Shown piece after piece: positions 4,560 through 25,557 of a stretch of 62,811 nucleotides of DNA (within the stretch, counting starts at the first letter, position 1; each line of letters opens with the position of its first letter). The stretch is from Parcubacteria group bacterium GW2011_GWD2_42_14 (GTDB taxonomy: Bacteria; Patescibacteriota; Minisyncoccia; Phycocordibacterales; UBA12088): assembly GCA_000998045.1 (NCBI GenBank), contig LCCS01000002.1, positions 1-62,811 of the forward strand, written 5' to 3'. Both the position numbers and the translations under genes were made by a program. The notes beneath the pieces are model-generated. The model ran no database searches and had not been told where the DNA came from. It saw nothing but the letters and a program-made list of their open reading frames with translations.

Positions 4560-4568
4560 TGAAATCAA

Positions 4569-5000
4569 TTATAGCGACTCTGAAAAACAATACTAGTTCA
4601 CAAACATGTAGTTTGTGTGTGTTTATGGGGATAGTATGTGGATAAGTGGACAAGAGAGTTATGAGTAAAGCGAGTAGCGAGTTATCGAGTGACGAGCCTG
4701 CCCTACAGGTGCAGGTATGGTAGGCAGGTAAAACGATGTTGAAAGAGGTTTTGTGCCGAGCTCTACTCTGTACTGAAACCTAATTCTAGTACAAGGTTTT
4801 GCTTTTAGTGTGAGGTTAAAAGTAAATGACACAAGTTCAAAAGCAGTGACATGTGTGTTTTTTGTAAGTAGTTTATTTTTTTGGCTTAAAATAAGGTTTA
4901 TGTGATGCGCTAAAGCTTGCTTTTTTCTATAAATATGATATAATATTAAAAGGTAAACGATGTTTGAAATAAGTATAAAAACTCACAAGGAGGTTAAGAG
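4569..5000. promoter_or_regulatory. region upstream of dnaA with a DnaA box, an AT-rich tract and the promoter for the 5001 gene
   Basis: A perfect TGTGGATAA at 4637-4645 is followed by GTGGACAA. AT-rich sequence runs from about 4860 to 4980. A TTGCTT-N17-TATAAT promoter lies near 4917-4945, with an AAGGAGG Shine-Dalgarno site before ATG 5001. Confidence 0.4.
4663..4696 (+). repeat. GAG-stop repeat (GAGTAAAGCGAGTAGCGAGTTATCGAGTGACGAG)
   Basis: A single frame reads GAG TAA ... GAG TAG ... GAG TGA. The 19-mer at 4663-4681 matches 42911-42929 at 18 of 19 positions. CGAGTGACGAG recurs in reverse complement at 58345-58390. Confidence 0.7.
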
Positions 5001-6206: not shown

Positions 6207-6223
6207 TTTAAAGGAGTGAAACT

Positions 6224-7051
6224 ATGAGCTGGTTCCTGTTTGGATTTATATCCACCTTGACGCTAATTGTGGGTGCGGGTGTTTTTGTTTATGTTCTAAA
6301 AACATCCACCACAAAAACAACTCTAAAACCAACATCTGAAGGAGATTCTAAAACAACTTCACCGGCAACTTCGCCAAATGTAAAAGTTGTTGTAACAACA
6401 ACTAAAAGTAACACTTATGTTGTTGTAGGTATGGTACTGCTTCTACTCGTCCTTTTTGGGGTAGTAGTGTTTACCTACCCAATTCTGAAGAACGTCAACT
6501 ACCATGGGTATGGTTCTGTTTTTCCTTACTCACTGGCTGTAATTGTTGGGTGCTTGGTGTACTACATGAGAACAAAAAAGGAGGAGAAGTTACGCTCGGC
6601 ACTACTTGCCACCACAGGCACCGCGATATTGATAGCGTTGTGGATGTATCACGGGCAGCTAGGCGCACTTTTAGTTGGGTCGTCGAGTAAGGTAGTAGGA
6701 CAGGTTACCCCGATATATGTAGAAAAGGAGTTCCTGGTCTTCCTAATCGCACCCTTGATGGGCCTGATGAGCTACTACTTGAGCGACCGAGGATACAAAA
6801 GATTTTCCTATGCGCTCATGATAACTATCGCAACAGCGGTTGTGATAGCGCTTTGGATTCATCCGGAAGTGCTGAAAGAGGTCGTTAGACCTTTTGGTAC
6901 AACTTCACTTGTAGAACACGCTAAGGATAGCAGTTCGAAGTTTGCTGTATATCTGGCAGTGGTATTGTTTATTCTCGCAGTTCTTTCTGGGAAGCTTATT
7001 GAAGTCATTATTGGAACGGCTTTGATGCTTATTCTCTGGAACTGCTTTTAG
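6224..7051 (+). CDS. polytopic membrane protein of unknown function
   Basis: An AAGGAG Shine-Dalgarno site precedes the start. There are multiple hydrophobic helices and a Thr/Ser/Lys-rich linker after the first helix. The gene is followed by a terminator. Confidence 0.65.
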   Translation: MSWFLFGFISTLTLIVGAGVFVYVLKTSTTKTTLKPTSEGDSKTTSPATSPNVKVVVTTTKSNTYVVVGMVLLLLVLFGVVVFTYPILKNVNYHGYGSVFPYSLAVIVGCLVYYMRTKKEEKLRSALLATTGTAILIALWMYHGQLGALLVGSSSKVVGQVTPIYVEKEFLVFLIAPLMGLMSYYLSDRGYKRFSYALMITIATAVVIALWIHPEVLKEVVRPFGTTSLVEHAKDSSSKFAVYLAVVLFILAVLSGKLIEVIIGTALMLILWNCF

Positions 7052-7287: not shown

Positions 7288-7317
7288 AAACAAACCGCCC
7301 TTTTGAGCGGTTTGTTT
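7288..7317 (+). other. stem-loop between rpmH and rnpA
   Basis: AAACAAACCGC pairs with GCGGTTTGTTT across an 8-nt loop. Confidence 0.5.
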
Positions 7318-7335
7318 CATTACACCCACACCACA

Positions 7336-7656
7336 ATGCTTAAAAAGAAACAACGACTATCACGAGCTGATTTTACAAACCTCCTTAAAAAAGGAAAACG
7401 GCTCCATTCTCCGTACTTCTCCCTTCTCTATATGGGGGCACAAGAAACAAAATGCGGTCTCGTGGTAGGTAAAAAAATAGCAAAAAAGGCGACTATGAGA
7501 AATAAGGTACGTCGGCAAATATATGCCATCTTTGGTGAAAATCTAACAGTACTAAGTAAGGTACACTGCGCCCTCTTGACTCGACCTAATATAACCTCCC
7601 TTACTTATTTTGAGCTTAAAATGGAGATCGAAAAACTCATTAAAAACCTGAAATGA
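7336..7656 (+). CDS. rnpA: RNase P protein component
   Basis: The product has MLKKKQRLSRADF...KKIAKKATMRNKVRRQI and sits in the conserved position after rpmH. It ends with TGA. Confidence 0.85.
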   Translation: MLKKKQRLSRADFTNLLKKGKRLHSPYFSLLYMGAQETKCGLVVGKKIAKKATMRNKVRRQIYAIFGENLTVLSKVHCALLTRPNITSLTYFELKMEIEKLIKNLK

Positions 7657-9276: not shown

Positions 9277-10596
9277 TTACTCCTCTTCAGTTTCAGGTAC
9301 CTCAGCTGATGGTGTTGTGTGTTTTTCAGGAAGTTTAAGTGCCCACAGCACGTTGTTCACTCTTGTTTTAAAGAGTACATAATTTTCTTGTGGACTCACC
9401 ACAATATCCACAATATCAAACTGCTCATCTGTAGCTTCAACAGGGTCAAAAAGTTTTTTCACAACACCAGTCCCTGTGTCTAGGCGCCACAATACATCAT
9501 CAGTACTGGTAAGACCCATATACCAATCTTCTAGGAACTCACCATGTATTTCTTCTCGAGGGATAGCGCAATATACATACCTTGATACTGGTCCCCAACT
9601 GCACTTCTCAACCAAAGTAGCCAAAGGAAGGTGTGTTGTGTCACCTGTTCCTAAATCTAAAACACGAAGTGAAAAAATAGAATTACCCGTCTCCTCAAGA
9701 GAGTACAGAATTTTCGTACCAGACGTGTTTGTTTTTGCTGCGAGGGCGATATTGTTCGCAAGCATAACAGAAGTACTTTTGGTGGTAGGGTTAATAGACC
9801 ATACTGCACCCTCTGCGTATGAGGAAGGGTTCGAATACACAAGTATTCTGTTTTGTGTTTCCCACGATACACTTAAATTCCGAAGCAGTGACTTCCAAAT
9901 CTGTGTCCGTGCACCAGTTAATACGTTCTCTAAATATCCTACTGAACCTTCGTTATTGGTGACTAGATAAAACAATTCGTTACCCTGAGGAGAAAATGCC
10001 ACGTCTTGTATTGTTTCAACCATTGGTCTTCCTGTAAACTCCACAGGTGGAACCCCACCCGTTGAGGTACCGTAAACCGCATAATTTATATAGGCAAACA
10101 TTTGTGTGCCACCTTCATCAAAATATCGTGAGATAGTAGAACTTCCATTTCTTGACCATTTTGCGTTACCAATACGAAGAATTGTTTTACTTGAAACGTT
10201 TACTTCATCACCTATAGTTGCAAGTGGTGTATCAAATACATGTCCATTTATCCTAGAGGTAAATCGTATGTACTCAACAACAGTACCTCCTTGCTCTCGC
10301 TCATATACTGCTGCTCCTGCGACAGGTATTTTAGTGACTGCACGAAATTCCGGCACTGGAGACCCTACTGCCCCATCCGGGACGAAACGCTCACTTGAAG
10401 TCCCGAACAAAAAATCGCTGTCAGAACTTGTTGCCTGTTGTCTTTCAGAACCTGTGTCACCAAAAGGATCTTGTTTTTCCTCTTCAGGTCCACTATTCCT
10501 AGCCAAAATGAACACTATTATAATAGCAAGTATCATTACTACTACGAGTGCAGCTGCTCCAGCAATAAGTTTGTTACTTTTTATAAAATCTAACAT
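9277..10596 (-). CDS. membrane-anchored beta-propeller-like protein (TolB/PD40-like); last gene of the T4SS-like operon
   Basis: An N-terminal transmembrane helix (AGAAALVVVMILAIIIVFILA) is followed by repeated beta-strand-rich blocks. The start overlaps the pilin gene stop by 7 nt. Confidence 0.5.
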   Translation of the reverse strand: MLDFIKSNKLIAGAAALVVVMILAIIIVFILARNSGPEEEKQDPFGDTGSERQQATSSDSDFLFGTSSERFVPDGAVGSPVPEFRAVTKIPVAGAAVYEREQGGTVVEYIRFTSRINGHVFDTPLATIGDEVNVSSKTILRIGNAKWSRNGSSTISRYFDEGGTQMFAYINYAVYGTSTGGVPPVEFTGRPMVETIQDVAFSPQGNELFYLVTNNEGSVGYLENVLTGARTQIWKSLLRNLSVSWETQNRILVYSNPSSYAEGAVWSINPTTKSTSVMLANNIALAAKTNTSGTKILYSLEETGNSIFSLRVLDLGTGDTTHLPLATLVEKCSWGPVSRYVYCAIPREEIHGEFLEDWYMGLTSTDDVLWRLDTGTGVVKKLFDPVEATDEQFDIVDIVVSPQENYVLFKTRVNNVLWALKLPEKHTTPSAEVPETEEE

Positions 10597-10991
10597 ATGT
10601 GTAATTGAATACTGGTTGTTTTAAAAATATTAATCTCAACCAGTTTAGGATTTATGGTGTACAGTATGGTGATAGAAGCGAGGACTATCAATAGTCCAAC
10701 GATTGCTTGAGTTATTTGTTCCTTTGCACCACTTATTTTAAAGACAGACTCACTCGTCATGTACTTAAAACCTCCTATGGCAAGCATAATGACCGCAAGT
10801 ACTGCAGCTACTGCAACTGAAATAGCAAAAAGAAGATTAAGAAAACCTTCCATTCCTCCAGCAAGCCAGTTGTTTGAGTCTGCTTGGGGGAGTGATGGTG
10901 AAAGAGGAACAAACTCGGCAGCCCTCAGGGTTATCGGAAAAACATACAACAAATATGTACCTAGTATCCAAAATAGTGATTTTTGTATCAT
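10590..10991 (-). CDS. VirB2/TrbC-like T4SS pilin candidate
   Basis: The 133-aa product has a signal-like N-terminus (...ITLRAAE) and then two hydrophobic helices (FLNLLFAISVAVAAVLAVIMLAIGG and AIVGLLIVLASITILY). The gene overlaps both neighbouring genes. Confidence 0.55.
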   Translation of the reverse strand: MIQKSLFWILGTYLLYVFPITLRAAEFVPLSPSLPQADSNNWLAGGMEGFLNLLFAISVAVAAVLAVIMLAIGGFKYMTSESVFKISGAKEQITQAIVGLLIVLASITILYTINPKLVEINIFKTTSIQLHIC

Positions 10992-12040
10992 AGTGCGTCT
11001 GTGTCAGGGTTAATATCCCTCCACGTATCATTTAGTCCAAAATCAACCGTAAGGTCTGCACGTCCGTTTTGGAGCCAGTATGCAGTATTTTGAATAACCA
11101 AGTTTACTAATGCAGTACCACTACCAACCCCTTCGGAACCGAGAGAAATACTTCCAGGGCTTGTGTATTTTTTCCCTGAAATGGTCCATGTGTAGGTGAG
11201 TGCAGGATCCGTTCGTGTGGATGCGCTTATATAGTATGGTTCTGCCACTACCGTAGTCTCCCTGTCGGATATACCATGTGTGCCTGCAATAGCTCTGTCG
11301 TACCGTATACCTATAAGAGGACTGTCTTCATATAGAATCACTGAAGGTTGGTTTGCTGGGATAACAAACTTTTTACCTACACGCACTACTCCTTTTGGAT
11401 CTTTTACAAGGAGATTAATAGTGAAAACTTCAAAGGGTTTATCATTTATTAAGGTTACTGAATGTTTACCTTTCCCTGAGATTTGAGGAATGGTAGAGTA
11501 ATTTGTTGACCACGAATACGAAAGTTCTTCTGCTGTGTACGCAACTCCTTTTGCACTTAAAACAGTAGGTAGTGCAACAATCACTACCTCAGAACCAGGT
11601 GTTTGTAGTGCCCTCCCTTGATAGAAGGGTGGTGTGTACGTCCGAGCTTCCCATACAACACTTACATCTCCTACGTGTATAACATTCTCTGCTGAAACTC
11701 GAAATCCTGATGCATCTTCAGCAACTACAGTTATTTTGGAAACACTCCCCACTTCACCAATTGTATATGTTACCTCCTTTTGAGAATATGACTGCTGGAT
11801 AATTTCTCCATTTAAACGCCATGTTATAAGGGCAGTGTCGCTATCAAGACTCGATGCATGAAGTTTTGCTTTAACCGTCTGTCCTGGGGCAGGATATTTT
11901 GGAGTAATTTCTATGGTTGCTTTTGTCATACCAGGCTGTACCTGAGCGCTCAGCAGGTGTGTCGTTGTAAACACCGCACCCGTAGCCACCACGAGTGTTA
12001 TTAATAAAGCGAGATATTTTAGATTTGTTTTGCTATACAT
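10988..12040 (-). CDS. secreted protein with Ig-like beta-sandwich repeats
   Basis: It has a signal peptide (LALLITLVVATGAVFTT) followed by repeated beta-rich modules. It lies in the operon with a 4-nt overlap to the next gene. Confidence 0.55.
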   Translation of the reverse strand: MYSKTNLKYLALLITLVVATGAVFTTTHLLSAQVQPGMTKATIEITPKYPAPGQTVKAKLHASSLDSDTALITWRLNGEIIQQSYSQKEVTYTIGEVGSVSKITVVAEDASGFRVSAENVIHVGDVSVVWEARTYTPPFYQGRALQTPGSEVVIVALPTVLSAKGVAYTAEELSYSWSTNYSTIPQISGKGKHSVTLINDKPFEVFTINLLVKDPKGVVRVGKKFVIPANQPSVILYEDSPLIGIRYDRAIAGTHGISDRETTVVAEPYYISASTRTDPALTYTWTISGKKYTSPGSISLGSEGVGSGTALVNLVIQNTAYWLQNGRADLTVDFGLNDTWRDINPDTDAL

Positions 12041-12108
12041 AGGTTATTAAAAGTATACAACAGACTCCCGTATTTTTTTGACTGCATTGAGGATAACCAG
12101 AAAAGACT

Positions 12109-12732
12109 TCATACATGTATTTTGTTTAACAAGTTTATTTGTTGTGTTGTTTTGTGTAAGAGCTCAGAATCCTTGAGTGTGTCCTCTGCTCGTGAAATCA
12201 CAACATGACGCCAAACCATAAATGTGATACCAGGAAGTAAATCTAGTCCAGGAATATGTTCAACAATGATTGAGCCCATATTTACTAACACCCGTTGAGC
12301 GCTCCCGAAAGTCCATATGTTCACTCCTTTTATAAAAAACCAGATAGTAAAGAAAAGGTATGCTAGTATTGAGGCAACGAATGAACCAATCATATATAAA
12401 GGTGGGCCAAAAATTAGTGCTGAACCGCCACCAAATAATGCGATTTTTACAGTATCTTTTGCAGCACGACCTCCTATTCTTGTATAAGCGGTACCTTTAA
12501 TTCCCCAACCAGCTACAGTGTTCCAAAAACCCCCCTCCTCTATAGCCTTATCTGCTTTGGAAAGATTAGTCACGTCTTCAGAATAATTTCCCATCCCCAA
12601 ACTTGATATTACAAAAAAACCAACAACAACTAACAGGATTATGGGAAGAAGGTCAAAAAATACCCCGAAACCAAGCATAATTCTCCCTGTTGATTTTGAG
12701 ATTCGCTGTTGTGAAGGTAGTTTTGTTTGCAT
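12109..12732 (-). CDS. integral membrane protein of unknown function
   Basis: About four hydrophobic helices are visible. It lies between the VirB4-like ATPase gene and the Ig-like protein gene. Confidence 0.55.
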   Translation of the reverse strand: MQTKLPSQQRISKSTGRIMLGFGVFFDLLPIILLVVVGFFVISSLGMGNYSEDVTNLSKADKAIEEGGFWNTVAGWGIKGTAYTRIGGRAAKDTVKIALFGGGSALIFGPPLYMIGSFVASILAYLFFTIWFFIKGVNIWTFGSAQRVLVNMGSIIVEHIPGLDLLPGITFMVWRHVVISRAEDTLKDSELLHKTTQQINLLNKIHV

Positions 12733-12750
12733 ACGTTTATACGATACTCA

Positions 12751-14601
12751 TTATAGTTGAACTGTCTGTTCAGTATCACCACTCTCGAGTCCGTCACGTT
12801 CTTTTTTAATTGCGAGGAGTTGAGATGGGTCTGAGGTGATAATCTGGTCTTCTGTGTACGAAGCAATTATTTTAATAGCAACATGCTTACTTCCTGCGAA
12901 GAATATACCTTCTCCTACCTGTGACTCAAGGAGAAGGTATTTCTCTTCATCTGTTAAGTTAAATGTTGCCTGAATCCTATCAATTGCCGTTGCAGACTGC
13001 TTAAGGAGGATTTGTATAGATGAGTTCGTAATCATCGGTACACCGTAGGGAGACTTTAGGAAGTCATCGACGTCTTGGGTGATGGTAGCAAGTCCTAGGT
13101 AGTACTTCCTACCACGTTTTGCCACACTATAGAGGAATCCCGCCGTATCGTCACTCTTCATCATAAACCATGCCTCATCTACCACGAGGAGTCGTTTTTT
13201 AAGTTCACGACGAACCGCTGTCCAGATGAAGTTGGTGACAATGTACATCGCAGCTGGTTTCAAATCTTCTTCCATATCACGTACAGAGAAGACCACGAAT
13301 TTTTGGTTGATATCTACGTTTGTTGGCCTGTTGATGAAACCTGCCCATGTACCCCTTGTGTACTTCGTAAGGCGAAGGAGTAGTGAGTCACTTCCCTCCA
13401 TACCACTTAACACAAGTTCAAGGTCAGAGAGTAGTGGGGGGACAAGGTTTGAGAAGTCTGTGGTTCCTGTGATGTCTTTGAGTGCGTATGTTTCAGTTAT
13501 TGCACGGTCAATCATTGCATCTTCCTCGGGAGACAATCCTCCCAACATGATGCGAAACAGTCCAACCAAAGTGATAATGTTTTGTCGCAAAATATCGGAG
13601 GGGTTTTCATCCTCATGCACGACAGGTAAGTCAAATGGATTGATATGGTGCTCAGAAGAGAGAGAAATATTGAAGTACCTTCCACCTGTAGCGCTTGCCA
13701 TGTACTCATACTCACGTTCAGGGTCGATCACAATAACCTCAGTTTCAAACATAAGTGAACGGAGTACCTCAAGTTTCATAGTGTAGCTTTTTCCTGCTCC
13801 CGATTTTGCAAAAAGCACCGAGTTGTAGTTTTCCATTGAATACCGGTCAAAAAGCACTAGCGAACTATTATGAAGGTTTATACCGTACAACACTCCATTT
13901 TCTGCAGTAAGGTCAAAAGAAATGAAGGGGAAAATTGAAGAAAGTGGTGAGCTATTGAGTTTACTGTGTACAAAAATCTCATCCGTGCAAAGTGGGAGGA
14001 CGCTTCGGTACCCTTGATCTTGTTGAAAGAGTGCTGGTTTTAAGTAAATGAGTTGTGATTCAAGCATTGATTTCATTTCATCCTCCACCTTATCAAGGGC
14101 TTCTTTATTATCGGCATAGACAGAAATATAGACACCTACATCAAAGAGTCGTTGTTCCGCTTGTTGAAGTGAGTCTCGAAGTGTTTCAAGGTTTTCATGG
14201 GCGGCGTCAAGCATTGGGTCTCGAACCATACCTCGTGCTTCTCGTTCATGAATTTGACTTTGCACCTCCGCAACTTTCTTCTGAAATTTCTTAAGCATCG
14301 GTGCTGTGTCGATAGGGTGTATAAAAATGGAGACATCAAATACATTTTCCAAGTTTATTATAGGAGAAAACCAGTTTTCAGTTAGGTACCTAGGATATGA
14401 AATGATAAAAAAGGTTCTCGCCACTTGCTCGCCCAGGTTTATTTCATTAGGGGTTATTTGGAGTGCAGAAGGGGCAAGTACATCTTTTAACTCGAGATTG
14501 GTCACTTCATACACATCACTTGGAACGATTGACCCAAAGTTGACTTCTTCAACACCCTCTTTCTTTTTGTTGAATGAAAATAACCCCATACTATTTTTCA
14601 T
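12751..14601 (-). CDS. virB4: VirB4/TrbE-family T4SS ATPase (C-terminal roughly 615 aa)
   Basis: Walker A is LFAKSGAGKSYTMK and Walker B is LLVVDEAWFMM. The N-proximal segment APSALQITPNEINLGEQVARTFFIISYPRYLTENWF is typical of Gram-positive VirB4 proteins. The first 95 codons of the track ORF overlap the upstream gene and look non-coding. Candidate starts are ATG 14601 and ATG 14589. Confidence 0.85.
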   Translation of the reverse strand: MKNSMGLFSFNKKKEGVEEVNFGSIVPSDVYEVTNLELKDVLAPSALQITPNEINLGEQVARTFFIISYPRYLTENWFSPIINLENVFDVSIFIHPIDTAPMLKKFQKKVAEVQSQIHEREARGMVRDPMLDAAHENLETLRDSLQQAEQRLFDVGVYISVYADNKEALDKVEDEMKSMLESQLIYLKPALFQQDQGYRSVLPLCTDEIFVHSKLNSSPLSSIFPFISFDLTAENGVLYGINLHNSSLVLFDRYSMENYNSVLFAKSGAGKSYTMKLEVLRSLMFETEVIVIDPEREYEYMASATGGRYFNISLSSEHHINPFDLPVVHEDENPSDILRQNIITLVGLFRIMLGGLSPEEDAMIDRAITETYALKDITGTTDFSNLVPPLLSDLELVLSGMEGSDSLLLRLTKYTRGTWAGFINRPTNVDINQKFVVFSVRDMEEDLKPAAMYIVTNFIWTAVRRELKKRLLVVDEAWFMMKSDDTAGFLYSVAKRGRKYYLGLATITQDVDDFLKSPYGVPMITNSSIQILLKQSATAIDRIQATFNLTDEEKYLLLESQVGEGIFFAGSKHVAIKIIASYTEDQIITSDPSQLLAIKKERDGLESGDTEQTVQL

Positions 14602-15259
14602 TTGATAATTCTGATAACGGAATTGGTCTATCGAGCTCCCCAATATTAAATAGTCGGTAGAACAGCTCAATAATTTCTTCCGTACCCAACTGTGCGGCAC
14701 GTACACCAGTTCTTGAGAGACCTTGCACCACCATAGCCACTCTTTGCTCAATCTGAGATCGGTACTCTTCAAAGAGTTGCATTGAAATGTGCACCTCACC
14801 CTTGTTCTGTGTTTTAAAGATGGAACCAAGACCTTTGGGGTTTGAAGACATTTCCAATGATGGTGGATTATATGGAACCACCACATAAAATCCTTTTGTC
14901 ATAATACTTGCTCCTCCTACAAAACCTCGAACAAAGTCCATGTACTCTCGAACCTGAATTTTCATTAGTTCTGTCTGCTGCTTGTCCAATTGTTGCTCGA
15001 GTAGAGCGAGGTAGGGTCGTATATCCAACTCTCTTGATTGAATAAAAATTTGAATAGAAAAATCAAGAGAGTTTAAAAAGTTTTCAAATTGCTTAAGTAT
15101 AGCAGTCTGTTCATCCTCACTCTTAAGCACTATGTTTATAGAGGATGCCATAAGCACAGCACGCACCGTACCATCTTTAAGTACCATAATACCATCCCGC
15201 ACTTGCTCTATCGGCACGAAATCTTGACTTGGCTTGGCTCTTGATGATGCTTGTGACAT
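14591..15259 (-). CDS. protein resembling the extreme N-terminal region of Gram-positive VirB4 ATPases, encoded separately
   Basis: The segment FVPIEQVRDGIMVLKDGTVRAVLMASSINIVLKSEDEQTAILKQFENFL matches the N-terminal pattern of VirB4/Orf16-type proteins as I recall it. The start is ATG 15259, 4 nt after the upstream stop. Confidence 0.5.
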   Translation of the reverse strand: MSQASSRAKPSQDFVPIEQVRDGIMVLKDGTVRAVLMASSINIVLKSEDEQTAILKQFENFLNSLDFSIQIFIQSRELDIRPYLALLEQQLDKQQTELMKIQVREYMDFVRGFVGGASIMTKGFYVVVPYNPPSLEMSSNPKGLGSIFKTQNKGEVHISMQLFEEYRSQIEQRVAMVVQGLSRTGVRAAQLGTEEIIELFYRLFNIGELDRPIPLSELSNEK

Positions 15260-15263
15260 GTAA

Positions 15264-15683
15264 TTAGTGTATTTTTTTATCGTTATCAAACAAATTGTTT
15301 GTGTCTAATGACCATGCGAGCTGTCTCAGCTTAGATTGTGACATGGTGACAGAAACTGGTCTTGTTGTGTGTGCTTTCTCTATATCCTCAGTAATGTGCT
15401 TTTTTTGAGTTTTTTTCCATAAATAGAGCTTACTTTTAACGGCGTAAAATGAGGCAGAGTACAGTATATTAATAAAAGGTCTTCCTTGAACTTTTACAAA
15501 GGTCAAAAGAAAAGCTAGAAATAGTATGGGGATTCCTACGAGAGCTGCTATAAAAAGACCAAATTTTATAAAAATAGCAACAGTAATACCAACACTTCCA
15601 AGAATATAAATTCCTTGTTTAAATGTAAGTGGACCAAATATTTTGTCCTCAACATCTATGAATTGTGGTACAGAAAATCTCAT
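15264..15683 (-). CDS. PrgI-family (VirB3-like) membrane protein
   Basis: MRFSVPQFIDVEDKIFGPLTFKQGIYILG is followed by two transmembrane helices. This is the characteristic N-terminus of PrgI-family proteins. Confidence 0.6.
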   Translation of the reverse strand: MRFSVPQFIDVEDKIFGPLTFKQGIYILGSVGITVAIFIKFGLFIAALVGIPILFLAFLLTFVKVQGRPFINILYSASFYAVKSKLYLWKKTQKKHITEDIEKAHTTRPVSVTMSQSKLRQLAWSLDTNNLFDNDKKIH

Positions 15684-15755
15684 ATGATACAAGTGCGCGT
15701 TTTAATAACCGCCGGATGAAGAATATATAATATGAACGACCCGCACCATCGTCCC

Positions 15756-16169
15756 CTACTCCTGCACCTGTGCTCGATACGGGTCTAAGCCCCCCTGCAC
15801 CCCCTCATTCGGTAGAGCGTTTGCGGAAGGTTTGTTAGTGTCTGCAACAGTACCTAAAGAAAGCAGAAGGGCTTCCCGAACAGGATTAAAAATATGTTGC
15901 ACTACACCTTCAAACAGTGCCGTTGCTTTTTGGGGGTCTATGGGGAGCTCTGATGTAACGAACACTTTGAAATCCTTGGTCGTCGAAAGTCCTGTTGAGG
16001 CAAGAGTAATTTGTTCAATGCACACTTTTTTGTCTTTCTCCCCAAGACCCGCAACTTCTGTAAGTGCGCGTATACTCTCTGTAGTGACATCCGAAAGAAT
16101 GATATCCTTCACTCCATCAGGAAGGCGCGCAAATCGTTCAGTTACAGTTTTTTGGTCAAATGTTTTCAT
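15756..16169 (-). CDS. hypothetical soluble protein within the T4SS-like operon
   Basis: The 137-aa product has no transmembrane segment. The start lies immediately after the upstream stop. Confidence 0.5.
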   Translation of the reverse strand: MKTFDQKTVTERFARLPDGVKDIILSDVTTESIRALTEVAGLGEKDKKVCIEQITLASTGLSTTKDFKVFVTSELPIDPQKATALFEGVVQHIFNPVREALLLSLGTVADTNKPSANALPNEGVQGGLDPYRAQVQE

Positions 16170-16170
16170 A

Positions 16171-18564
16171 TTACACGCTCATTTTGTTGGTATCATTAAA
16201 CCAGTTATGCAGTTTAACAATATTCTGTTGTTCTGGGGTTAAGTTTTCCGAAGTTTTGACAGGCTGTCCAGTTTTTGGGTCAATAATTTTGCTCGATTCT
16301 GTAGGAATTTTAATCTTTGCATACTCTTTTTCTACCGCTACCTTCATAGCTTCCCTCTTCTCTTGTGATAGTCCCACTTTGACCATTCCGGTAAGTGTTT
16401 GAGGGTCTATGTTTTGTACCACCTCACCTCGTTGAAGGAAGGATACATCGTGTTCAGCCAAATCTGCCGGCTTAGTCATTCGTATCTCATCCTTCAATGC
16501 ATCACCAGTCAAAGATTCAAAATGAGCTTTTCGAGTACCGATAAATGTACCTACGGTTGGTGCATCGAACATATCATCCTTATTTTCCTTAATTTGTTTA
16601 AAGGTTTGGTGTGACATGTGTGCAACAGCACCTGGGTTTTCTGCCAAGGCAACAGCATTTTCTTTTATATCTGAACTAGACATATCCCGAAGTGTTTTTA
16701 TGTATGCCTTCTTTGTTTCTGCGTCTTGCGTTGTGTTTACTGTACGAATTGCTTCCCGTTCTTTTTTGAAAGCTGCTTCAGTGAGCTGTCTCCTCTGCAT
16801 AGGAGTTGCACTTTCCTTAGCTGCCAATGCTGACGCATGTTTCTTACTGTACGCATTTATCATTTGAGGGGTATCGCCAGCTTTTCCAGAGTTTTCGCGA
16901 AGACGTTCAATTTCGGCCTGTGATGCGCTAGCAATTTTCCTCTTCGCGATATCATGTGCTGTTTTCTGGTTTTCAGCATAGTATTTGCTGTTAACAATGC
17001 CCGTTGCTTCTTTCAGCTCAGTATCTCTTCCTGTTTCATTAAGTTCTTTAATGCGTGCGTCAGAATTTTTCTTATTTGAAAGTTTCCTTTCCGCAAAACT
17101 ACTACCACCAAACTTCATACCTGCTCCTGCCCCAACAGCAGTACTAAGTCCACGATCAATTCTTCCTCCGGAGAGACCTCGTTTTAGTTTTGCCATTGGA
17201 GATTTATGTACATACTGACCATTTTCCATCCTGTTTGCTTCGGCCATGTCTTCAGCGTACTTTCTCTGAGCGCGTGATGAAGCCCACCCAACCGTATAAG
17301 CCCCTGCCAAACTCCCAGCTCCTATAGCCACACTCCGTGACCATTTCTCGCCGGTCTTAAGCACTGCGTCTGCTCCATGTGCCCCAAGTTTTTTCGCCAC
17401 AATAAGTCCTGCAATAAGAAAACCAATGACAGTAATAAACATTGTTGCGATTGAGATTGCAGAAGGGGAGACTGTGCCTACTGATCCTAGTGTTACGCCA
17501 GCATAACTGTTTGTATAGTCTCTTAAAATAACATAAGCTATCCACCAGCAGAGCAGTAGTGCAGGTGGAAAAATACTCTGATTGATGAGTGAATGCCACC
17601 ACGCGCGTCCTTGCCCTGAAACACCTGTTATCCAGAGCACAAGCGCAAGAGGTGAAACTATAAGTAGGAAGACAAGAATAATAAAACGAGCAATAAAAAG
17701 GAAGCCCGCCCCCCCAAACACAAATGCTAGCACTATAAACATAGCAGTTGCCATGAGATAGGTAAGGGTCATAGTCCAGTATAGACTGGTTTCATCACCA
17801 CCTTCTGGATCACCTGCTTTCAATGCCGAAAAATCAAAAATAGTAGTGATTTTGAGCTGAGTCCAAAAAGCCGAAGCAATACCATTGCTGATACACACCA
17901 CGTTGTTGTTCTCAATCGCTCCTGTGGACCTCACTCGTTCAGCACATTCTGCAGGTATAGTACCTGCCGCCTCAGACTGAAACATCAAGACTGTTTGAAT
18001 AGCTGTGAGATTAGATATATCTATTATCACTTTGGTAAACGTAACACTGAAGTTGACAAGTAGTGCTGCCAGTACCACCTTCCACAACATTTGCTTGGCC
18101 CCAAAACCCGAGATACCGAGAATAGTTGCAATACCTATGTAAACTGTTAAGAACACCAAAAACACATTAGTAATATCACGTATCGTTTTCCACGCGGTCA
18201 TGATAGCGTTCATTGACCGAACCACCTCACCCATTCCTACCACAAGCTCATTAAGTGCAAAGTTAAAAAAGAGTCCCATCCAACCCGCTATTTTGTAAGA
18301 AAGCGCCATCACATAATATGTCATAAAGGCGACACATCCAGCAAAAGAGCTAGTTGTGAGTTTTCCATCTTGGAAACAGCCCGTACTGGGTGCATAGCTT
18401 CCATCGTCTAGACCGTTTTCGGTAGCCTCTGCGAGGCTTTGACCTGTACCACTTTGAGCAAATGTAGTAAGTGGCGCAAGTGCGGGCAACACCACCGTAC
18501 TTGTTAGAAACAACACAAGTAGTGTCTGAGCAATATGTTTTTGATGTTTTTTAAAAAAGTTCAT
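16171..18564 (-). CDS. large polytopic membrane protein, VirB6/TrbL-like, with a long charged C-terminal tail
   Basis: A signal-like N-terminus is followed by at least 8 hydrophobic helices over about 450 aa and then a Lys/Ala/Glu-rich tail of about 330 aa. The VirB6 assignment rests on topology and context only. Confidence 0.45.
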   Translation of the reverse strand: MNFFKKHQKHIAQTLLVLFLTSTVVLPALAPLTTFAQSGTGQSLAEATENGLDDGSYAPSTGCFQDGKLTTSSFAGCVAFMTYYVMALSYKIAGWMGLFFNFALNELVVGMGEVVRSMNAIMTAWKTIRDITNVFLVFLTVYIGIATILGISGFGAKQMLWKVVLAALLVNFSVTFTKVIIDISNLTAIQTVLMFQSEAAGTIPAECAERVRSTGAIENNNVVCISNGIASAFWTQLKITTIFDFSALKAGDPEGGDETSLYWTMTLTYLMATAMFIVLAFVFGGAGFLFIARFIILVFLLIVSPLALVLWITGVSGQGRAWWHSLINQSIFPPALLLCWWIAYVILRDYTNSYAGVTLGSVGTVSPSAISIATMFITVIGFLIAGLIVAKKLGAHGADAVLKTGEKWSRSVAIGAGSLAGAYTVGWASSRAQRKYAEDMAEANRMENGQYVHKSPMAKLKRGLSGGRIDRGLSTAVGAGAGMKFGGSSFAERKLSNKKNSDARIKELNETGRDTELKEATGIVNSKYYAENQKTAHDIAKRKIASASQAEIERLRENSGKAGDTPQMINAYSKKHASALAAKESATPMQRRQLTEAAFKKEREAIRTVNTTQDAETKKAYIKTLRDMSSSDIKENAVALAENPGAVAHMSHQTFKQIKENKDDMFDAPTVGTFIGTRKAHFESLTGDALKDEIRMTKPADLAEHDVSFLQRGEVVQNIDPQTLTGMVKVGLSQEKREAMKVAVEKEYAKIKIPTESSKIIDPKTGQPVKTSENLTPEQQNIVKLHNWFNDTNKMSV

Positions 18565-18578
18565 ATTTTATTGCTCCC

Positions 18579-19856
18579 CTAGAAGGGGCTACCAATTGAG
18601 CCTGACATACTACCATCACTACCAATCTCACCCGACATGTTACCAATTGAGCCTGATATGCTACCATCACTACCAATTGAGCCTGATATTCCTCCGCTAC
18701 TTGAACCTCCACCAGACGTACCACTGGTTGTTCCTCCACCAGACGTACCACTGGTTGTTCCACCACCCTCACCTCCACCTGAAACCCCACCCGACGTTAC
18801 TGTACTGTTGTCCCCAGTGTCTCTACTACCCCTAAGCAGACCTTGTTCTACGTCATTAAATATATTATTTACAAGAGCAGCAAGGACTTCACCGAGTACC
18901 TCAGCTATTTCGTCTGCTACCTCGAGTTGTCCCAACCCTCCACCTAGCCAGTCATCAATCTGTTTTGAAATGATTTGTCCAGGGGTACACACCTCTCGTT
19001 GTCCATCACCATTTATGTCACATTTGTCTGAGAAGTATCCATCACCATATGAAAGCAGGGTTGCTTCCTCTGATGTAGTACGGCCTACTCTACCTGCAGC
19101 CTCAGACTGTACTTCAAAAAATGAGCCGTAGGGGTTGTTGGAATCTATAGCGAGACCCATCGCTGCTGGTATACCTCCTCCTTCAAAATTTAAATCTCCT
19201 TGCATAACCATTCTTTCATATCCCGCATCAACACCCATCCCACCGACATAATTTTCAAGACTACAGATATTCTGACCAGTCGAACCGTAGTTGGTCCGCC
19301 CACCTAGCTGTGTAACCGTCTGGCGTACATCATTTTCAAAAGGCGAACACAACCATTGACTTAAACCACTACTTTCAAGAAATGTGTTAAACGCGGTAAA
19401 TGCAATATCCCGAAAAAAACCGCTCAAATCTGTCAAAAAGACTGGACCATTATCAAAACCATCGTTTATCCAGTCCAAAATAGCCTGTGTGATAAAGTTT
19501 ATTAGGAGGCGTTTAATCACCCAAATAATAGGGTCAAGAACGCACTCCTTAAAAATAAGTTCTGCTGTTTTCTCTGCTGTTTGCTCGACATCGTTAAGTA
19601 ATTGATAATTTGTTTCATTTACAGGCACTGAGTCAACAAAGGCACCTATAACAGTGCCAAAAATTTCGTCAAAGAACCCTTCTATAAATCCCTCAAAGTA
19701 ACATGCCATGACTCCCACAACTCCTCCCATAATGATGCTTCCGGTTGATTGTTGCGCCTCCACTTTTTGAGCAGGTGCAACTCCTAGATATAGAAACGGT
19801 GTCATGACCGTCACCATAAGTACTGAAACGATAAAGTTTTTAAAATATGTAATCAT
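18579..19856 (-). CDS. secreted or membrane protein with a C-terminal Gly/Ser/Thr repeat tail
   Basis: It has an N-terminal hydrophobic segment and a Cys-containing central domain. The C-terminus reads GGGTTSGTSGGGTTSGTSGGGSSSGGISGSIGSDGSISGSIGNMSGEIGSDGSMSGSIG. Confidence 0.6.
   Translation of the reverse strand: MITYFKNFIVSVLMVTVMTPFLYLGVAPAQKVEAQQSTGSIIMGGVVGVMACYFEGFIEGFFDEIFGTVIGAFVDSVPVNETNYQLLNDVEQTAEKTAELIFKECVLDPIIWVIKRLLINFITQAILDWINDGFDNGPVFLTDLSGFFRDIAFTAFNTFLESSGLSQWLCSPFENDVRQTVTQLGGRTNYGSTGQNICSLENYVGGMGVDAGYERMVMQGDLNFEGGGIPAAMGLAIDSNNPYGSFFEVQSEAAGRVGRTTSEEATLLSYGDGYFSDKCDINGDGQREVCTPGQIISKQIDDWLGGGLGQLEVADEIAEVLGEVLAALVNNIFNDVEQGLLRGSRDTGDNSTVTSGGVSGGGEGGGTTSGTSGGGTTSGTSGGGSSSGGISGSIGSDGSISGSIGNMSGEIGSDGSMSGSIGSPF
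18591..18790 (-). repeat. in-frame tandem DNA repeats encoding the Gly/Ser tail
   Basis: A perfect 27-nt tandem duplication lies at 18706-18732 and 18733-18759. The unit ACCAATTGAGCCTGAYATRCTACCATCACT recurs at 18591, 18642 and 18672. Confidence 0.85.
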
Positions 19857-19859
19857 GTG

Positions 19860-20849
19860 CTAATTATCTGAACCAGGGTTGACGTTTTGATGCAGTTCAA
19901 AATATCTACGCAAAATGGAAATGGTGTGTATGAGGCGTCCTCGTACGGTCTGGAACACATTAACTGAAGCTGCTGTACGAAGAGGGTCTGAATTTATAAA
20001 GGAAAAGCCCTCTATGGTAAATGTATACTGCATAAGTGCTTGAACAAAACTTACATGAAGTCCTACAGCATCTTCAGGTACTTCCATCGTGCGAAGTTTG
20101 TCTGTATGTATTGTATACACATGTACCATTTCAGATAATACCCCTGCAGCCCACTCCTTGTCTCCTTGAGCAAGTGCAAGGAACGCCTCATCCTCATTAT
20201 CACTTCCTGTGGTCATTGCAAGAACAATTTCCCGTACTGTTGCAATGTATTGCATTCGACTTTCCGATGTAGCGGGAACACTTCGTACCTCACTTTGGTT
20301 GTATGTAGGTGCAGTAACTAAAGGAGTAACTTTCCCCAGCGCTTGTTGTACCATCTCTTCCTGTTGTTCTTTACTGAGATCCGTCCCGCTTTTAAGTGAA
20401 TATAGATAGGAAGCAAACAATTCTTTTGCAAGTGCATCTGTAGAGGTAGGAGGAACGTCACTATTCTTATGATTTTCAGGTTCCATTCCAACCGTATCTG
20501 CACCTACCTCGTTTTCTAAACCGGATGCAATACTCAATGATTCACTTGCAACGAACACTTGATCTCTATCGGAGACACCATCGCCATCCGTATCAGGTTT
20601 GGTAGGATCTGTAGACCATAGCACCTCCTCCCAGTCTGCCAAACCGTCTTCATCTGAATCTTGTTCATATGCTTTTGTTATTATCTCAGGGTCTATTTCA
20701 GAATTTGTAGCAAGTTGAGTAGTAGTATTTTTCTGGTTACCGTCTTCGTAAAAAACATACGAAACTGCAATAATGAAAACTACAGCAACGACAGTTATGG
20801 TCGTTGCCACAATACGATTTGCTGAGCCAGCCACATATCGAGTCCTCAT
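19860..20849 (-). CDS. membrane-anchored protein with thrombospondin-type-3-like calcium-binding repeats; first gene of the operon
   Basis: An N-terminal transmembrane helix is followed by DSDEDGLADWEEVLWSTDPTKPDTDGDGVSDRDQ, a DxDxDG-type repeat pattern. Confidence 0.6.
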   Translation of the reverse strand: MRTRYVAGSANRIVATTITVVAVVFIIAVSYVFYEDGNQKNTTTQLATNSEIDPEIITKAYEQDSDEDGLADWEEVLWSTDPTKPDTDGDGVSDRDQVFVASESLSIASGLENEVGADTVGMEPENHKNSDVPPTSTDALAKELFASYLYSLKSGTDLSKEQQEEMVQQALGKVTPLVTAPTYNQSEVRSVPATSESRMQYIATVREIVLAMTTGSDNEDEAFLALAQGDKEWAAGVLSEMVHVYTIHTDKLRTMEVPEDAVGLHVSFVQALMQYTFTIEGFSFINSDPLRTAASVNVFQTVRGRLIHTISILRRYFELHQNVNPGSDN

Positions 20850-21009: not shown

Positions 21010-21091
21010 ATATGTTATTGTATAGATTAAATATTTAACTTTGCATATATTCGCACATCACGAGTGGCGACACGTGCTATACTTTTTACAT

Positions 21092-22210
21092 ATGACACCT
21101 ACTATTAAAAAAACACTACAACCAAAACATTTTTACTCCCTGGTCATTTTCGTGTTTCTCTTTTCCGCTGTTTCTTTTTTGGTGAATGTGGTAGCTTCTG
21201 TAGGAACTCCATGCCATACCGTTACGACACCTGATGCGACTCCTTCTACTTTTGGTTCCCCACTCAATTTTTTTAGTGGGGCAAATGAACTACTTATTTC
21301 CGTAAATTGTGATGGCAGTAACGCCACACATATAGAAGTTGGAAGTGGTGCTCCTACACAATATATATACATGTATGGCTACCGAAAAGTGAATGGAAAA
21401 TGGACAAGGACTACGTTTACAGGAAGTACGGTAACGGGAGTTTGGATAATCGGGAAAGGTGGAGTAACGATTGAGGGTGTACAGAGTGGTGAAACGGGCC
21501 AAGTTCTTGCGTATATTTGCCAAAATATCCAAAATACATGGAAATGTGGTTGTTCTGATACTGCTTGTTTAACTCCAAAGTGGCAACTTCAAGAATACCA
21601 ACTTCCGGCCAGCTCAGCTGGGAGTACAAATTCAAATGGAGACGGTATTTTAGACGTCCACTATCCTTCTAAATACCTAGGTCTTCCAGGTGATACAGTT
21701 ACCCTCGTTGGTTCAGGTTTTGAAAAAGGTCCGGTAAGTAAAATATTGTGGAACGGTGAGGTACAAGAAACAGGTGTATCTTCAGAAACCGGCACAGCAC
21801 TCACTATCACCATTCCTAATCTTCCTCCTGGAAAATATGAGGTAAAGGTAAAAGAAGGTAATGTTGTGTCAGAATACGGAATGGGTATATGGATAGGAAC
21901 AGGAGACAATAGTCCGGCACCTACAATCACTTCTATTTCTCCTGAATCAGGGCTTCAAGGAGGTACGTTTACGGTGCATGGAACCGGTTTTACTAAGGAA
22001 AATAATGATGCCATTACAACATATGGCATAGTACGAGGACTGCCGTCAGAAGACGGGAAAAGTATTACTTTCACCTACGACCCATTTGATGAAAAGTTAG
22101 TAAGTTATAACGAAAATGCCGAACGGACTGAGTATGCATTGCCAGTAAATGTTACGATAATGAACACTTCTGGCCAAAGTAATATGAAGATATTTAACTT
22201 AAACATATAA
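21092..22210 (+). CDS. secreted protein with IPT/TIG-like Ig domains
   Basis: ATG 21092 gives a signal or transmembrane segment (FYSLVIFVFLFSAVSFLVNVVAS). Two IPT-like modules are visible (GDTVTLVGSGFEKG... and PTITSISPESGLQGGTFTVHGTGFT). Confidence 0.6.
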   Translation: MTPTIKKTLQPKHFYSLVIFVFLFSAVSFLVNVVASVGTPCHTVTTPDATPSTFGSPLNFFSGANELLISVNCDGSNATHIEVGSGAPTQYIYMYGYRKVNGKWTRTTFTGSTVTGVWIIGKGGVTIEGVQSGETGQVLAYICQNIQNTWKCGCSDTACLTPKWQLQEYQLPASSAGSTNSNGDGILDVHYPSKYLGLPGDTVTLVGSGFEKGPVSKILWNGEVQETGVSSETGTALTITIPNLPPGKYEVKVKEGNVVSEYGMGIWIGTGDNSPAPTITSISPESGLQGGTFTVHGTGFTKENNDAITTYGIVRGLPSEDGKSITFTYDPFDEKLVSYNENAERTEYALPVNVTIMNTSGQSNMKIFNLNI

Positions 22211-22212
22211 GT

Positions 22213-22584
22213 ATGAAAAAAATAACTGCACTCAGACATCTTCTCATTACAGCGCTCTTTGTAAGCTGTGTTGTGCTTGGTAGTTTTGTTGTGCCGAAGA
22301 CAACGTTGGCACTTTTCCTTGAAGGAGGCAGAAGTCAGGAAGCAAGTTTTTGCTCGTGTAGTGTTTGTTTTAAAATTGAAGTTGGCTCTCCAAAAAGTGG
22401 GACGTTTATGTATTGCCCTTGGTTTACAAGACTGTATGCGCACTACAACATTTTCCCTAACGCATGGCAACTTGGAAAAGCATACACGTATATGACTTGT
22501 CTTCAGATTTCATACCCCTACTGCAGAACTGACGGAGGAGGATATCTTCTAACAATGACGGGGACTTCGCATGGAGGATTCTAG
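22213..22584 (+). CDS. small secreted Cys-rich protein
   Basis: It has a signal peptide (MKKITALRHLLITALFVSCVVLG) and about 8 Cys residues. It starts 2 nt after the upstream stop. Confidence 0.5.
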   Translation: MKKITALRHLLITALFVSCVVLGSFVVPKTTLALFLEGGRSQEASFCSCSVCFKIEVGSPKSGTFMYCPWFTRLYAHYNIFPNAWQLGKAYTYMTCLQISYPYCRTDGGGYLLTMTGTSHGGF

Positions 22585-23345
22585 TTAACTAAACAAAGCC
22601 ACTGCTCAAGAGACACGTCCTCAGGGCGTGTTTTCTTTTCCACGGCACATCGAATAAAATCTTTTGGTTCTATGGTTTTTTTAAGTGTTGCTCCAAGCGT
22701 TTTCCTCTTTTGTGAAAATGCTGTTCGTGCAGTTTCGAAAAAACGTTCTTCCTGTGCTGTGCTTTTAAATCTATTTCGCGAAATACCTTCAATAGAGAGT
22801 ATGGCGGAGTCAACTTTTGGTGGAGGAGAAAAGGCCCCCGCTTTTACAACCTTGCAGAGCTTTGGCGTGCCGTATGCATATACAGAAAGAGAAAGGAGAC
22901 TGTGCTTATTGTTCTTTGCAACAATGCGCAGAGCTACCTCCTTTTGTACCAATATCGCAATAGCGTCTGGTTGTTTTTTGGAAGTGAGAAACTGCCGAAT
23001 TATAAAGCCTGTAATATAGTACGGAATGTTTGCCACCAGAGTGTACGTGGGATCTAGATGCGAACAGACAGAAGGATCGAAATCTCGCACATCTTCTTCA
23101 AGTAGTAACAACTTTCCCGAGGCTATTTCTGCAGAAAAAGTTTTTTTAAGTTCTGTAACAAGTTCTGCATCTTTTTCTACTGCAACGACCTTTTTTGCAA
23201 CTTTTAGGAGTTCTTGAGTAAGGATACCGTGCCCTGGGCCAATCTCAAGAACGGTAGTTTTGTCTGAAAGCGTTATAGATTGTGCCACCCAAGTTGCTAT
23301 TTCAGGTCGTGTGAGAAAATGTTGTCCGAGTTTTGGTTTTTTCAT
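22581..23345 (-). CDS. rsmA: 16S rRNA (adenine1518/1519-N6)-dimethyltransferase
   Basis: The product has KPKLGQHFL... and VLEIGPGHGILTQEL, the SAM-binding motif. Confidence 0.9.
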   Translation of the reverse strand: MKKPKLGQHFLTRPEIATWVAQSITLSDKTTVLEIGPGHGILTQELLKVAKKVVAVEKDAELVTELKKTFSAEIASGKLLLLEEDVRDFDPSVCSHLDPTYTLVANIPYYITGFIIRQFLTSKKQPDAIAILVQKEVALRIVAKNNKHSLLSLSVYAYGTPKLCKVVKAGAFSPPPKVDSAILSIEGISRNRFKSTAQEERFFETARTAFSQKRKTLGATLKKTIEPKDFIRCAVEKKTRPEDVSLEQWLCLVN

Positions 23346-25449: not shown

Positions 25450-25557
25450 AAGCTTGTATCATACCATAGTGTGAGGTGCTATTATAGCGCTTCATAGAGC
25501 CAATTTTTTACTTTTTTGATTTCTGTTGCTTAATCAACAGGTTGTTTAAGAAAGTGC

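Follow-up and report, generated by a model that had tools for sequence, protein, structure and literature searches.

The 62,811-nucleotide contig LCCS01000002.1 of Parcubacteria group bacterium GW2011_GWD2_42_14 (apparently complete in the stretch of DNA that was analysed, 62.8 kb, hereafter the window) carries an operon which very likely encodes a type IV secretion system (T4SS) derived from the conjugation machinery of single-membrane bacteria, the MPF-FATA class, and no longer located in a mobile element. This degree of confidence applies to the identity and architecture of the system and not to the direction of transport. The operon corresponds to the chromosomal T4SS of the ultra-small Patescibacteria (CPR bacteria) already described in 2023-2025 and is ordinary for its lineage. 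An earlier note on this DNA, made from the sequence alone, had called it a poorly described machine, a view that is superseded by the accounts of the system in PMC10633639 (2023), PMC12102498 (2025) and PMC12857230 (2025).

The operon consists of eleven consecutive minus-strand open reading frames (ORFs), G1 to G11, which occupy positions 9277-20849 in the ORF listing:

G1, 19860-20849, minus strand: 329 aa, transmembrane (TM) anchor and TSP3-type motif
G2, 18579-19856, minus strand: 425 aa, Cys-containing helical core and Gly/Ser-rich tail
G3, 16171-18564, minus strand: 797 aa, candidate VirB6-class polytopic membrane protein
G4, 15756-16169, minus strand: 137 aa, soluble, predicted cytoplasmic
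G5, 15264-15692, minus strand: 142 aa, PrgI/VirB3 family
G6, 14591-15289, minus strand: 232 aa, TrsD-like VirB4 N-terminal domain
G7, 12751-14601, minus strand: ~612-616 aa, short-form VirB4 ATPase
G8, 12109-12732, minus strand: 207 aa, small multi-TM membrane protein
G9, 10988-12040, minus strand: 350 aa, tandem Ig-like domains
G10, 10590-10991, minus strand: 133 aa, VirB2-type T4SS pilin
G11, 9277-10596, minus strand: 439 aa, TM-anchored TolB/PD40-type beta-propeller

The genes are tightly packed, the successive junctions from G1 to G11 measuring +3, +14, +1, +63, -26, -11, +18, +68, -4 and -7 nt. Scans for promoters and terminators gave no signal exceeding that of shuffled controls, and an all-against-all hhalign comparison among the operon families uncovered no hidden paralogy.

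Recognisable secretion components

A scan of species-representative genomes with G7 yielded 80 related loci from Paceibacteria-type metagenome-assembled genomes, among others those of Campbell-, Nomura-, Kaiser-, Taylor- and Zambryskiibacteria, and these loci are the basis of the family counts given below. The gene order within them was read in two ways, by plain tblastn and by iterated family hidden Markov models; G4 and G8 were missed by tblastn solely through their fast divergence.

The motor of the system is represented by G7 and G6. First, the G7 protein matches the NCBIfam conju_CD1110 VirB4 model with 356.5 bits, above the gathering cutoff of 325 bits, which assigns it to the MPF-FATA/CD1110-type VirB4 proteins. 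It also matches Pfam P-loop_TraG (3e-24), the solved VirB4 structure in PDB entry 4AG5 (3e-43) and TrwK (1.5e-7), and contains the Walker A motif AKSGAGKS and the Walker B motif LLVVDE. A weak match to CedB (4e-8, 32.3 bits) was also obtained and does not reach the family cutoff of 700 bits. More than 8,000 homologues of G7 were found, and since the closest of these are 600-625 aa long, the gene starts at 14601 or 14589, while the ORF-finder start at 14886, which gives a 711-aa version, lies too far upstream. The corrected start abuts the stop of the 232-aa G6 gene. Among the matches listed, the closest homologues are 73-96% identical to G7 and the named ones are all from Patescibacteria, the patescibacterial homologues being 74-96% identical, whereas the nearest plasmid VirB4s, from Bacillota and Actinomycetota, are 28-35% identical.

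Next, the G6 protein, encoded directly upstream of G7 and belonging to a family found in 79 loci, matches NCBIfam VirB4_plasma (positions 92-197, 2.4e-11), TrsD (7e-6) and CD1110 (positions 2-86, 3e-5), and its orthologues carry a precomputed PF26593 TraC-like annotation. As G7 aligns only to residues 219-773 of the full-length PrgJ, with 24% identity, G6 and G7 make up one VirB4 together, and the motor is thus a split VirB4, with a TrsD-like N-terminal domain (G6) and a separate ATPase (G7). A frameshift artefact was considered as the origin of the split and rejected, a short VirB4 with a separate TrsD-like gene being the rule in all relatives and also in pSK41. Finally, G5 reaches 30.0 bits against Pfam PrgI, exceeding the cutoff of 27; it forms a TM hairpin of segments 24-42 and 48-66, and its family is present in 76 loci.

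G3 is regarded as a probable VirB6-class protein, which is the weakest of the component calls. Its N-terminus is hydrophobic and signal-like, no fewer than five TM segments are predicted, and the charged C-terminal tail of ~357 aa is poorly conserved; the residues N171, F172, S173 and R293 are invariant in the family. The window copy matches no Pfam or NCBIfam family, and the search of PDB with the family profile found no VirB6. Among 40 orthologues, four match Pfam TrbL/VirB6 (best 1.6e-4), four the NCBIfam CD3337/EF1877 mobilome membrane protein (1e-4), two the Mbov_0396 TM protein of an integrative and conjugative element (ICE) and one the T4SS family MMCAP2_0566; the families matched by the largest numbers of orthologues are all polytopic T4SS proteins of the VirB6 class. 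The G3 family also aligns to TrsL of pSK41, a member of the TrbL family, with an hhalign probability of 57% (E 1e-4). The gene lies upstream of those for VirB3 and VirB4 with only G4 between, which parallels the arrangement PrgH-PrgI-PrgJ.

The G10 protein consists of a signal peptide followed by two hydrophobic helices with a short charged loop between them. The window copy scores 23.5 bits against Pfam T4SS_pilin and 17 bits against TrbC, and it matches the NCBIfam Mbov_0395 pilin-like family of Mycoplasma at 1.5e-5. T4SS_pilin is matched by 30 of 32 orthologues, the best at 2e-11 and several above the cutoff, and G10 is accordingly classed as a VirB2-type pilin. Such a pilin need not be a foreign addition, because VirB2-like pilins (PrgF) also occur in conjugative systems of Gram-positive bacteria, where they have been modelled on VirB6 pentamers (preprint of December 2025, bioRxiv 10.64898/2025.12.18.695078). 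The orthologues vary in length from 106 to 615 aa, compared with 133 aa in the window; long versions are encoded at L077:13236-14171, L061:13184-14017 and L079:12853-14598. Cys residues abound in their C-terminal extensions, a few of which have GGTE...HG and HWH-like motifs in common. A Pfam search of the extensions returned nothing, and the metallopeptidase motif suspected in some of them is therefore unsupported by Pfam.

The earlier note had proposed a VirB4 ATPase with Walker A and B motifs, a separate protein resembling the VirB4 N-terminus, a PrgI/VirB3-like protein, a VirB6-like polytopic protein with a long charged tail and a VirB2-like two-helix pilin, and the searches above bear out four of these assignments and make that of VirB6 probable.

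Partner proteins and gene order

The remaining six genes encode proteins that belong to no annotated family. The operon has essentially the same layout throughout the relatives. In essentially all of the 80 loci with enough flanking sequence the order is uvrD-ksgA-(small secreted protein, TIG protein)-G1-G2-G3-G4-G5-G6-G7-(G8)-G9-G10-G11-(jag)-yidC-rnpA-dnaA-dnaN, so that the conservation of gene order, raised as a check in the earlier note, is indeed found. Even G2 homologues of only 20-22% identity lie in the same gene context. In one subclade (L029, L041, L047, L053-L056, L059, L064, L065, L067, L080) the order of G10 and G11 is swapped, and two paralogous G1 genes stand in tandem in those members whose upstream flank is available.

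G1, G2, G4, G9 and G11 occur in fixed order in almost all related loci of sufficient extent; they belong to the constant core of the Paceibacteria system and are not add-ons. The sole facultative member is G8, whose family is found in 47 loci and which is cleanly absent from ~20, where G7 abuts G9. The earlier note had correctly recognised the TSP3-repeat, Ig-like, multi-TM and beta-propeller proteins, namely G1, G9, G8 and G11, which pass profile or TM tests, and the Gly/Ser tail of G2, which is visible in the sequence; its description of these proteins as not normally part of T4SSs does not stand, except that G8 is optional. The six partner families can be considered fixed operon parts, most of them predicted to be extracytoplasmic, and about half of the conserved operon genes are still without known relatives.

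G1 has a single N-terminal TM segment at residues 13-31 and a TSP3-type Ca-binding motif, DxDxDGxxDWEE, which matches Pfam TSP3_bac at 1e-4. The family profile matches a biofilm-associated surface protein (2e-4) over the Ca-binding motif only, and the conserved C-terminal domain of ~200 aa is without known relatives. Of the related loci, 51 have a member of this family, with a duplication in the subclade mentioned above.

G2 begins with a signal peptide or TM segment, followed by a conserved, Cys-containing helical core at residues ~72-342, and has no sequence match in Pfam, NCBIfam or PDB and none among plasmids. The family is nevertheless large: although word-indexed homologue searches returned only 15 and 19 proteins, an exhaustive profile search found 5,526 cluster representatives (clustering at 50% identity) with E<=1e-3, of which 2,059 reach 1e-30. 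The tail is Gly/Ser-rich in the window and varies between genomes, containing an F5/8 type C domain in 7 of 41 orthologues and surface Ig-like, fn3, PKD or Big domains in others. This repertoire suggests, from the domain assignments, a surface recognition protein and possibly a host-recognition module. A subgroup of the family has an N-terminal fn3 domain, and examples of tail variants are found in L015, L035, L049 and P0121-P0130. A first AlphaFold2 run on residues 1-345 with 15 sequences had a predicted local distance difference test (pLDDT) score of 41 and was discarded, while a second run on core residues 72-342 with 25 sequences reached a pLDDT of 66 and gave long helices and a hairpin at medium confidence. 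Foldseek comparison of this core model with PDB and BFVD found no match (best E ~2, TM-score <=0.25), which leaves a VirB5-like or other known fold for G2 unsupported.

G4 fills the slot between G3 and G5 in every related locus. Its 41 positional orthologues begin with a helical domain of ~100 aa, which a Pro-rich linker of widely varying length connects to a C-terminal DPYR[E/A] motif; there is no TM segment and no match in Pfam or PDB. The C-terminus is a near-invariant DPYRE, replaced by DPYRAQVQE in the window, the sole ORF there with such an ending, and by DMYRE in L084. Across ~1.3 Mb of loci a DPY[RH]E ending occurs in 61 ORFs; 60 of them are members of the G4 family, and the remaining one, unassigned, lies at a contig end in L036. 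The motif looks like a docking peptide.

G8 matches no Pfam or NCBIfam family. G9, whose family is present in 73 loci, has an N-terminal hydrophobic segment and is secreted or anchored; the family profile matches a Hoc Ig-like protein (2.4e-4), and the orthologues contain BiPBP_C (13 of 43), Ig_3 (11 of 43) and also PKD-like domains. G11, found in 65 loci, has a TM segment at residues 14-32 and conserved Cys and Trp residues. Its family profile resembles TolB propellers (E 0.008-0.1), and PD40 is matched by 4 of 41 orthologues, with DPPIV_N and DUF5050 also appearing. Profile searches of PDB with G3, G2, G4 and G10 were uninformative. In hhalign comparisons of all partner families with every Prg protein of pCF10 and Trs protein of pSK41 nothing emerged beyond the similarity of G3 and TrsL, and no VirB8-, VirB1-, PrgL-, PrgK-, TrsF- or TrsH-like assignment is possible from them.

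The degree of conservation differs widely along the operon. Measured over the loci, identity to the window has a median of 72% for G7, a value somewhat inflated as the loci were chosen by G7 similarity, 55% for G6, 43% for G5, 39% for G10 and 25-29% for G1, G2, G3, G9 and G11, compared with 56% for DnaA and 46% for YidC. The cytoplasmic parts are thus far more conserved than the surface parts. That VirB4 is more conserved than DnaA points to the motor being under very strong purifying selection, with the reservation that the loci were VirB4-selected.

Pfam scans were made of the operon and its flanks and of almost all ORFs >=250 aa on the 62.8-kb contig, and the absence of mobility and T4SS genes is judged on these ORFs. 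No relaxase, VirD4 or other type IV coupling protein (T4CP), VirB8-11 or adjacent integrase was found among them, which agrees with the earlier note in that VirD4, relaxase, VirB8/9/10 and VirB11 are missing; the adjacent relaxase and VirD4 that the note had named as a sign of an ICE fragment were looked for with a negative result. None of the eleven proteins matches the VirB8, VirB9 or VirB10 families in Pfam and NCBIfam, and no T4CP is present in the G1-G11 cluster of the window or of the related loci. The operon is not a mobile element, as the synteny is conserved across 80 loci from different genomes, but is chromosomal and vertically inherited.

Related systems and possible function

According to Quinonero-Coronel et al. 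2025 (PMC12102498), VirB4 is found in 2,417 of 3,035 Patescibacteria genomes (~80%), the Patescibacteria VirB4s form a monophyletic clade nested in MPF-FATA, and TrsD is the commonest associated component, with PrgI/VirB3, VirB6 and VirB2-like pilins encoded near virB4. The same authors describe relaxases as almost absent and T4CP homologues as encoded elsewhere in most Patescibacteria genomes, place the Paceibacteria locus next to dnaA, dnaN, rnpA and ksgA, and report that in Southlakia epibionticum the T4CP homologue is not essential while the T4SS is. The cluster SEML1_0006-0019 of S. epibionticum, a Saccharibacterium, is described by Wang et al. 2023 (PMC10633639) as essential and as containing pilins and no recognisable coupling protein or relaxase, and this T4SS is essential independently of comEC (PMC12857230). 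Reviews treat the function of the system as open and discuss both effector delivery and uptake (PMC12857230, PMC11665869). In a cultivated relative, tubular structures at the host interface and host-RNA uptake have been reported (2026 preprint, bioRxiv 10.64898/2026.06.21.733656).

The window operon resembles this clade in its MPF-FATA-descended VirB4 with an adjacent TrsD-like gene, in its PrgI/VirB3, probable VirB6 and VirB2-like pilin, in the absence of a relaxase and T4CP from the cluster, and in its position by dnaA, dnaN, rnpA and ksgA. There are also differences: the Saccharimonadia have an array of six pilins, in contrast to the single pilin gene of the window with its Paceibacteria layout, and no peptidase or lysozyme gene directly follows virB4, an M23/LysM gene lying instead ~5 kb upstream of G1. 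The families of G1, G2, G4, G8, G9 and G11 are not described in the accessible parts of PMC12102498 and PMC10633639, where unassigned neighbours are drawn in grey.

Among the better characterised systems, the Trs genes of the Staphylococcus plasmids pSK41/pGO1 (MPF-FATA, pGO1 subclass) correspond in local gene order, with a VirB3-like TrsC, TrsD and a short VirB4, TrsE, in the same succession; there is also a small VirB2/CagC-like TrsB and the TrbL-family VirB6 protein TrsL, which aligns weakly to G3. However, pSK41 is a plasmid, and its relaxases, VirD4-like TrsK, CHAP hydrolase, TopB and SSB have no counterpart in the window operon. The Prg/Pcf system of the Enterococcus plasmid pCF10 shares the VirB6-VirB3-VirB4 order and the VirB2-like pilin PrgF, whereas its PrgJ is a single full-length VirB4, it has a PrgK hydrolase, a VirB8-like PrgL, the T4CP PcfC and a relaxase, and no window partner family aligns to any Prg protein. 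In the T4SS of the Mycoplasma ICE, Mbov_0395, Mbov_0396 and Mbov_0397 weakly match G10, the G3 orthologues and G6/G7, respectively, although the scores are far under the family cutoffs and the Mycoplasma system is a mobile ICE. Finally, ComB of Helicobacter pylori, which has VirB2/3/4/6-type proteins and no T4CP, VirB11 or relaxase, and the archaeal Ced system are alike the window operon in this importing-T4SS composition. ComB differs in its VirB7-10 outer-membrane parts, which were not found in the window operon, and the CedB match mentioned above lies well below the family threshold.

By analogy with these systems, a working model can be outlined. G5, like VirB3, would anchor the motor to the membrane, and hexamers of the G6-G7 VirB4 would dock on a platform of VirB3 (G5) and VirB6 (G3), as in the R388 and pCF10 models. 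The VirB4 would extract the G10 pilin from the membrane and build it up on a VirB6 pentamer into a tube that crosses the cell wall. G1, G9 and G11 could form an extracytoplasmic wall-spanning or scaffold module, G2 may serve as the host-recognising part via its genome-variable tail, and G4 might dock on a cytoplasmic partner via its C-terminal DPYR[E/A] peptide. The reading of the operon as a host-contact machine for an episymbiotic lifestyle, offered in the earlier note, agrees with the published view of the system.

Whether the tube would import or export is less certain, and its role as a pilus conduit to the host for contact-dependent uptake of host-derived macromolecules is proposed tentatively, at somewhat less than even confidence. 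Uptake is favoured because a set of B2, B3, B4 and B6 with no D4, B11 or relaxase fits ComB-type importers better than exporters, because the T4CP homologue of S. epibionticum is dispensable and its T4SS is not, and because host-RNA uptake is reported in the cultivated relative.

Several points weigh against this picture, some of them concerning the components and others their function. G3 has no significant match itself, and its VirB6 call consists of weak matches in a minority of the orthologues and the 57% hhalign probability. The G10 pilin of the window falls under the Pfam T4SS_pilin cutoff of 26.6 bits, and extensions of up to ~480 extra residues in many of its orthologues are an odd fit to pilus packing. 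An adhesin or tip role of G2 is read solely from the tail domains of its orthologues, the model of the core being of medium confidence and without a match. For the Paceibacteria systems, direction and cargo are pure inference. In addition, T4CP homologues are common elsewhere in Patescibacteria genomes, as stated in PMC12102498, and here one may be encoded outside the contig.

The last point bears on the export of proteins, in which effectors or toxins would be delivered into or onto the host with the help of a T4CP encoded elsewhere, as is the case for the T4CP homologues of most Patescibacteria genomes (PMC12102498), or with none needed, as in Ptl and Brucella. Export is the commonest non-conjugative role of T4SSs and has been proposed for Saccharibacteria (PMC10633639 and PMC11665869), and G4 with its conserved C-terminal motif could be an export substrate or chaperone. 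However, export is held somewhat less likely than uptake, given that no T4CP was found in the cluster of the window or of the related loci, that the S. epibionticum homologue is non-essential while the T4SS is essential (PMC12102498), that no candidate effector genes are conserved beside the operon, and that Sec already places proteins outside a single-membrane cell.

An organelle for adhesion or attachment only, with a pilus and adhesins and nothing transported, would account for the combination of a pilin with adhesin-type surface modules, which are Ig-like and TSP3 domains in the operon and discoidin, fn3 or PKD domains in the G2 orthologue tails, as well as for the fast evolution of the surface parts. 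It is nonetheless improbable, as type IV pili already serve adhesion and motility (PMC12857230), and as the VirB6-class protein with its large cytoplasmic tail and the cytoplasmic G4 suggest membrane traffic. The very high conservation of the ATPase is equally compatible with mere assembly and with transport and does not discriminate between the two.

The uptake reading can be taken further, to a version that is given a low probability. The six partner families might represent a lineage-specific module which converts a former conjugation motor to a feeding tube, in which G2 would be the pilus tip or host receptor and set the host range by its genome-specific C-terminal binding domains, G1, G9 and G11 would form a sheath spanning the wall, G4 would replace the coupling protein on VirB4/TrsD, docking there with its C-terminal DPYR[E/A] peptide, and host nucleic acid, for example RNA, would be imported into a cell unable to make nucleotides.

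The T4SS is found in ~80% of Patescibacteria genomes and is essential in the one species tested (PMC12102498, PMC10633639), and knowing its cargo would show by what means a large part of bacterial diversity lives at the expense of other cells. While the window holds no new kind of system, it adds a Paceibacteria parts list of ten always-present genes and one optional gene, and the large G2 family, with adhesin-type domains in the tails of some relatives, and G4 with its docking-like motif provide handles for structural modelling and genetics.

Surroundings of the operon

The housekeeping genes flanking the operon in the window are dnaN (1846-2946), dnaA (3198-4568), rnpA (7303-7656) and ksgA (22581-23345). 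That the operon is a fragment of a conjugative element, an ICE or integrated plasmid with its relaxase and coupling protein elsewhere or lost, is very improbable: while the VirB4, PrgI and TrsD families stem from Gram-positive conjugative elements and the contig encodes a tyrosine recombinase (36221-37102) and an IS1595-family transposase (44547-45416), the operon sits between ksgA and jag-yidC-rnpA-dnaA with a constant internal order in essentially all 80 loci, its genes have diverged in step with the housekeeping genes beside them, its GC content is unremarkable, no flanking relaxase, T4CP, integrase or repeats were found, and the recombinase and the insertion sequence element lie >15 kb away, past PNPase and other core genes. 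The recombinase, together with the region 42000-50000, which has a lower GC content of ~38% and contains the transposase, a DUF3800 protein gene, tRNA-Gly and tRNA-Pro, with tRNA-Arg just upstream, may constitute a small region of mobile or variable DNA that has no relation to the operon.

A cluster of four DnaA-box-like sites with <=1 mismatch at 3002-3255 lies between dnaA and dnaN and extends slightly into the 3′ end of dnaA, and a perfect DnaA box is found upstream of dnaA at 4637-4645. Transcription of the operon proceeds toward the DnaA-box region, both in the window and in every related locus. With the putative origin at 3002-3255, its transcription would run head-on to the replication fork, which makes the head-on orientation to the dnaA/oriC region stated in the earlier note plausible.

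Two genes divergent from the operon are situated between G1 and ksgA. A TM-anchored protein with two IPT/TIG domains is encoded at 21041-22210 on the plus strand and is found in 13 related loci, and a 123-aa Cys-rich secreted protein is encoded at 22213-22584, also on the plus strand, and occurs between ksgA and G1 in 31 related loci; both may be linked to the T4SS. Further upstream, the region 23491-29630 encodes a UvrD/PcrA helicase, an M23/LysM peptidase (25807-26826) and ComM (28104-29630). The uvrD and M23/LysM genes recur upstream in the distant loci L082 and L084, and ComM in L084. The M23/LysM enzyme could be a stand-in for the missing VirB1-type wall hydrolase.

On the other side of the operon, two plus-strand ORFs of 401 and 275 aa at 5001-7051, between dnaA and rnpA, have no significant Pfam match; without a counterpart in any related locus, they look like a lineage-specific insertion beside the presumed origin. 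An ORF of 802 aa on the minus strand at 30072-32480, likewise with no Pfam match, is flanked by a DksA-type zinc-finger gene on one side and PNPase on the other.

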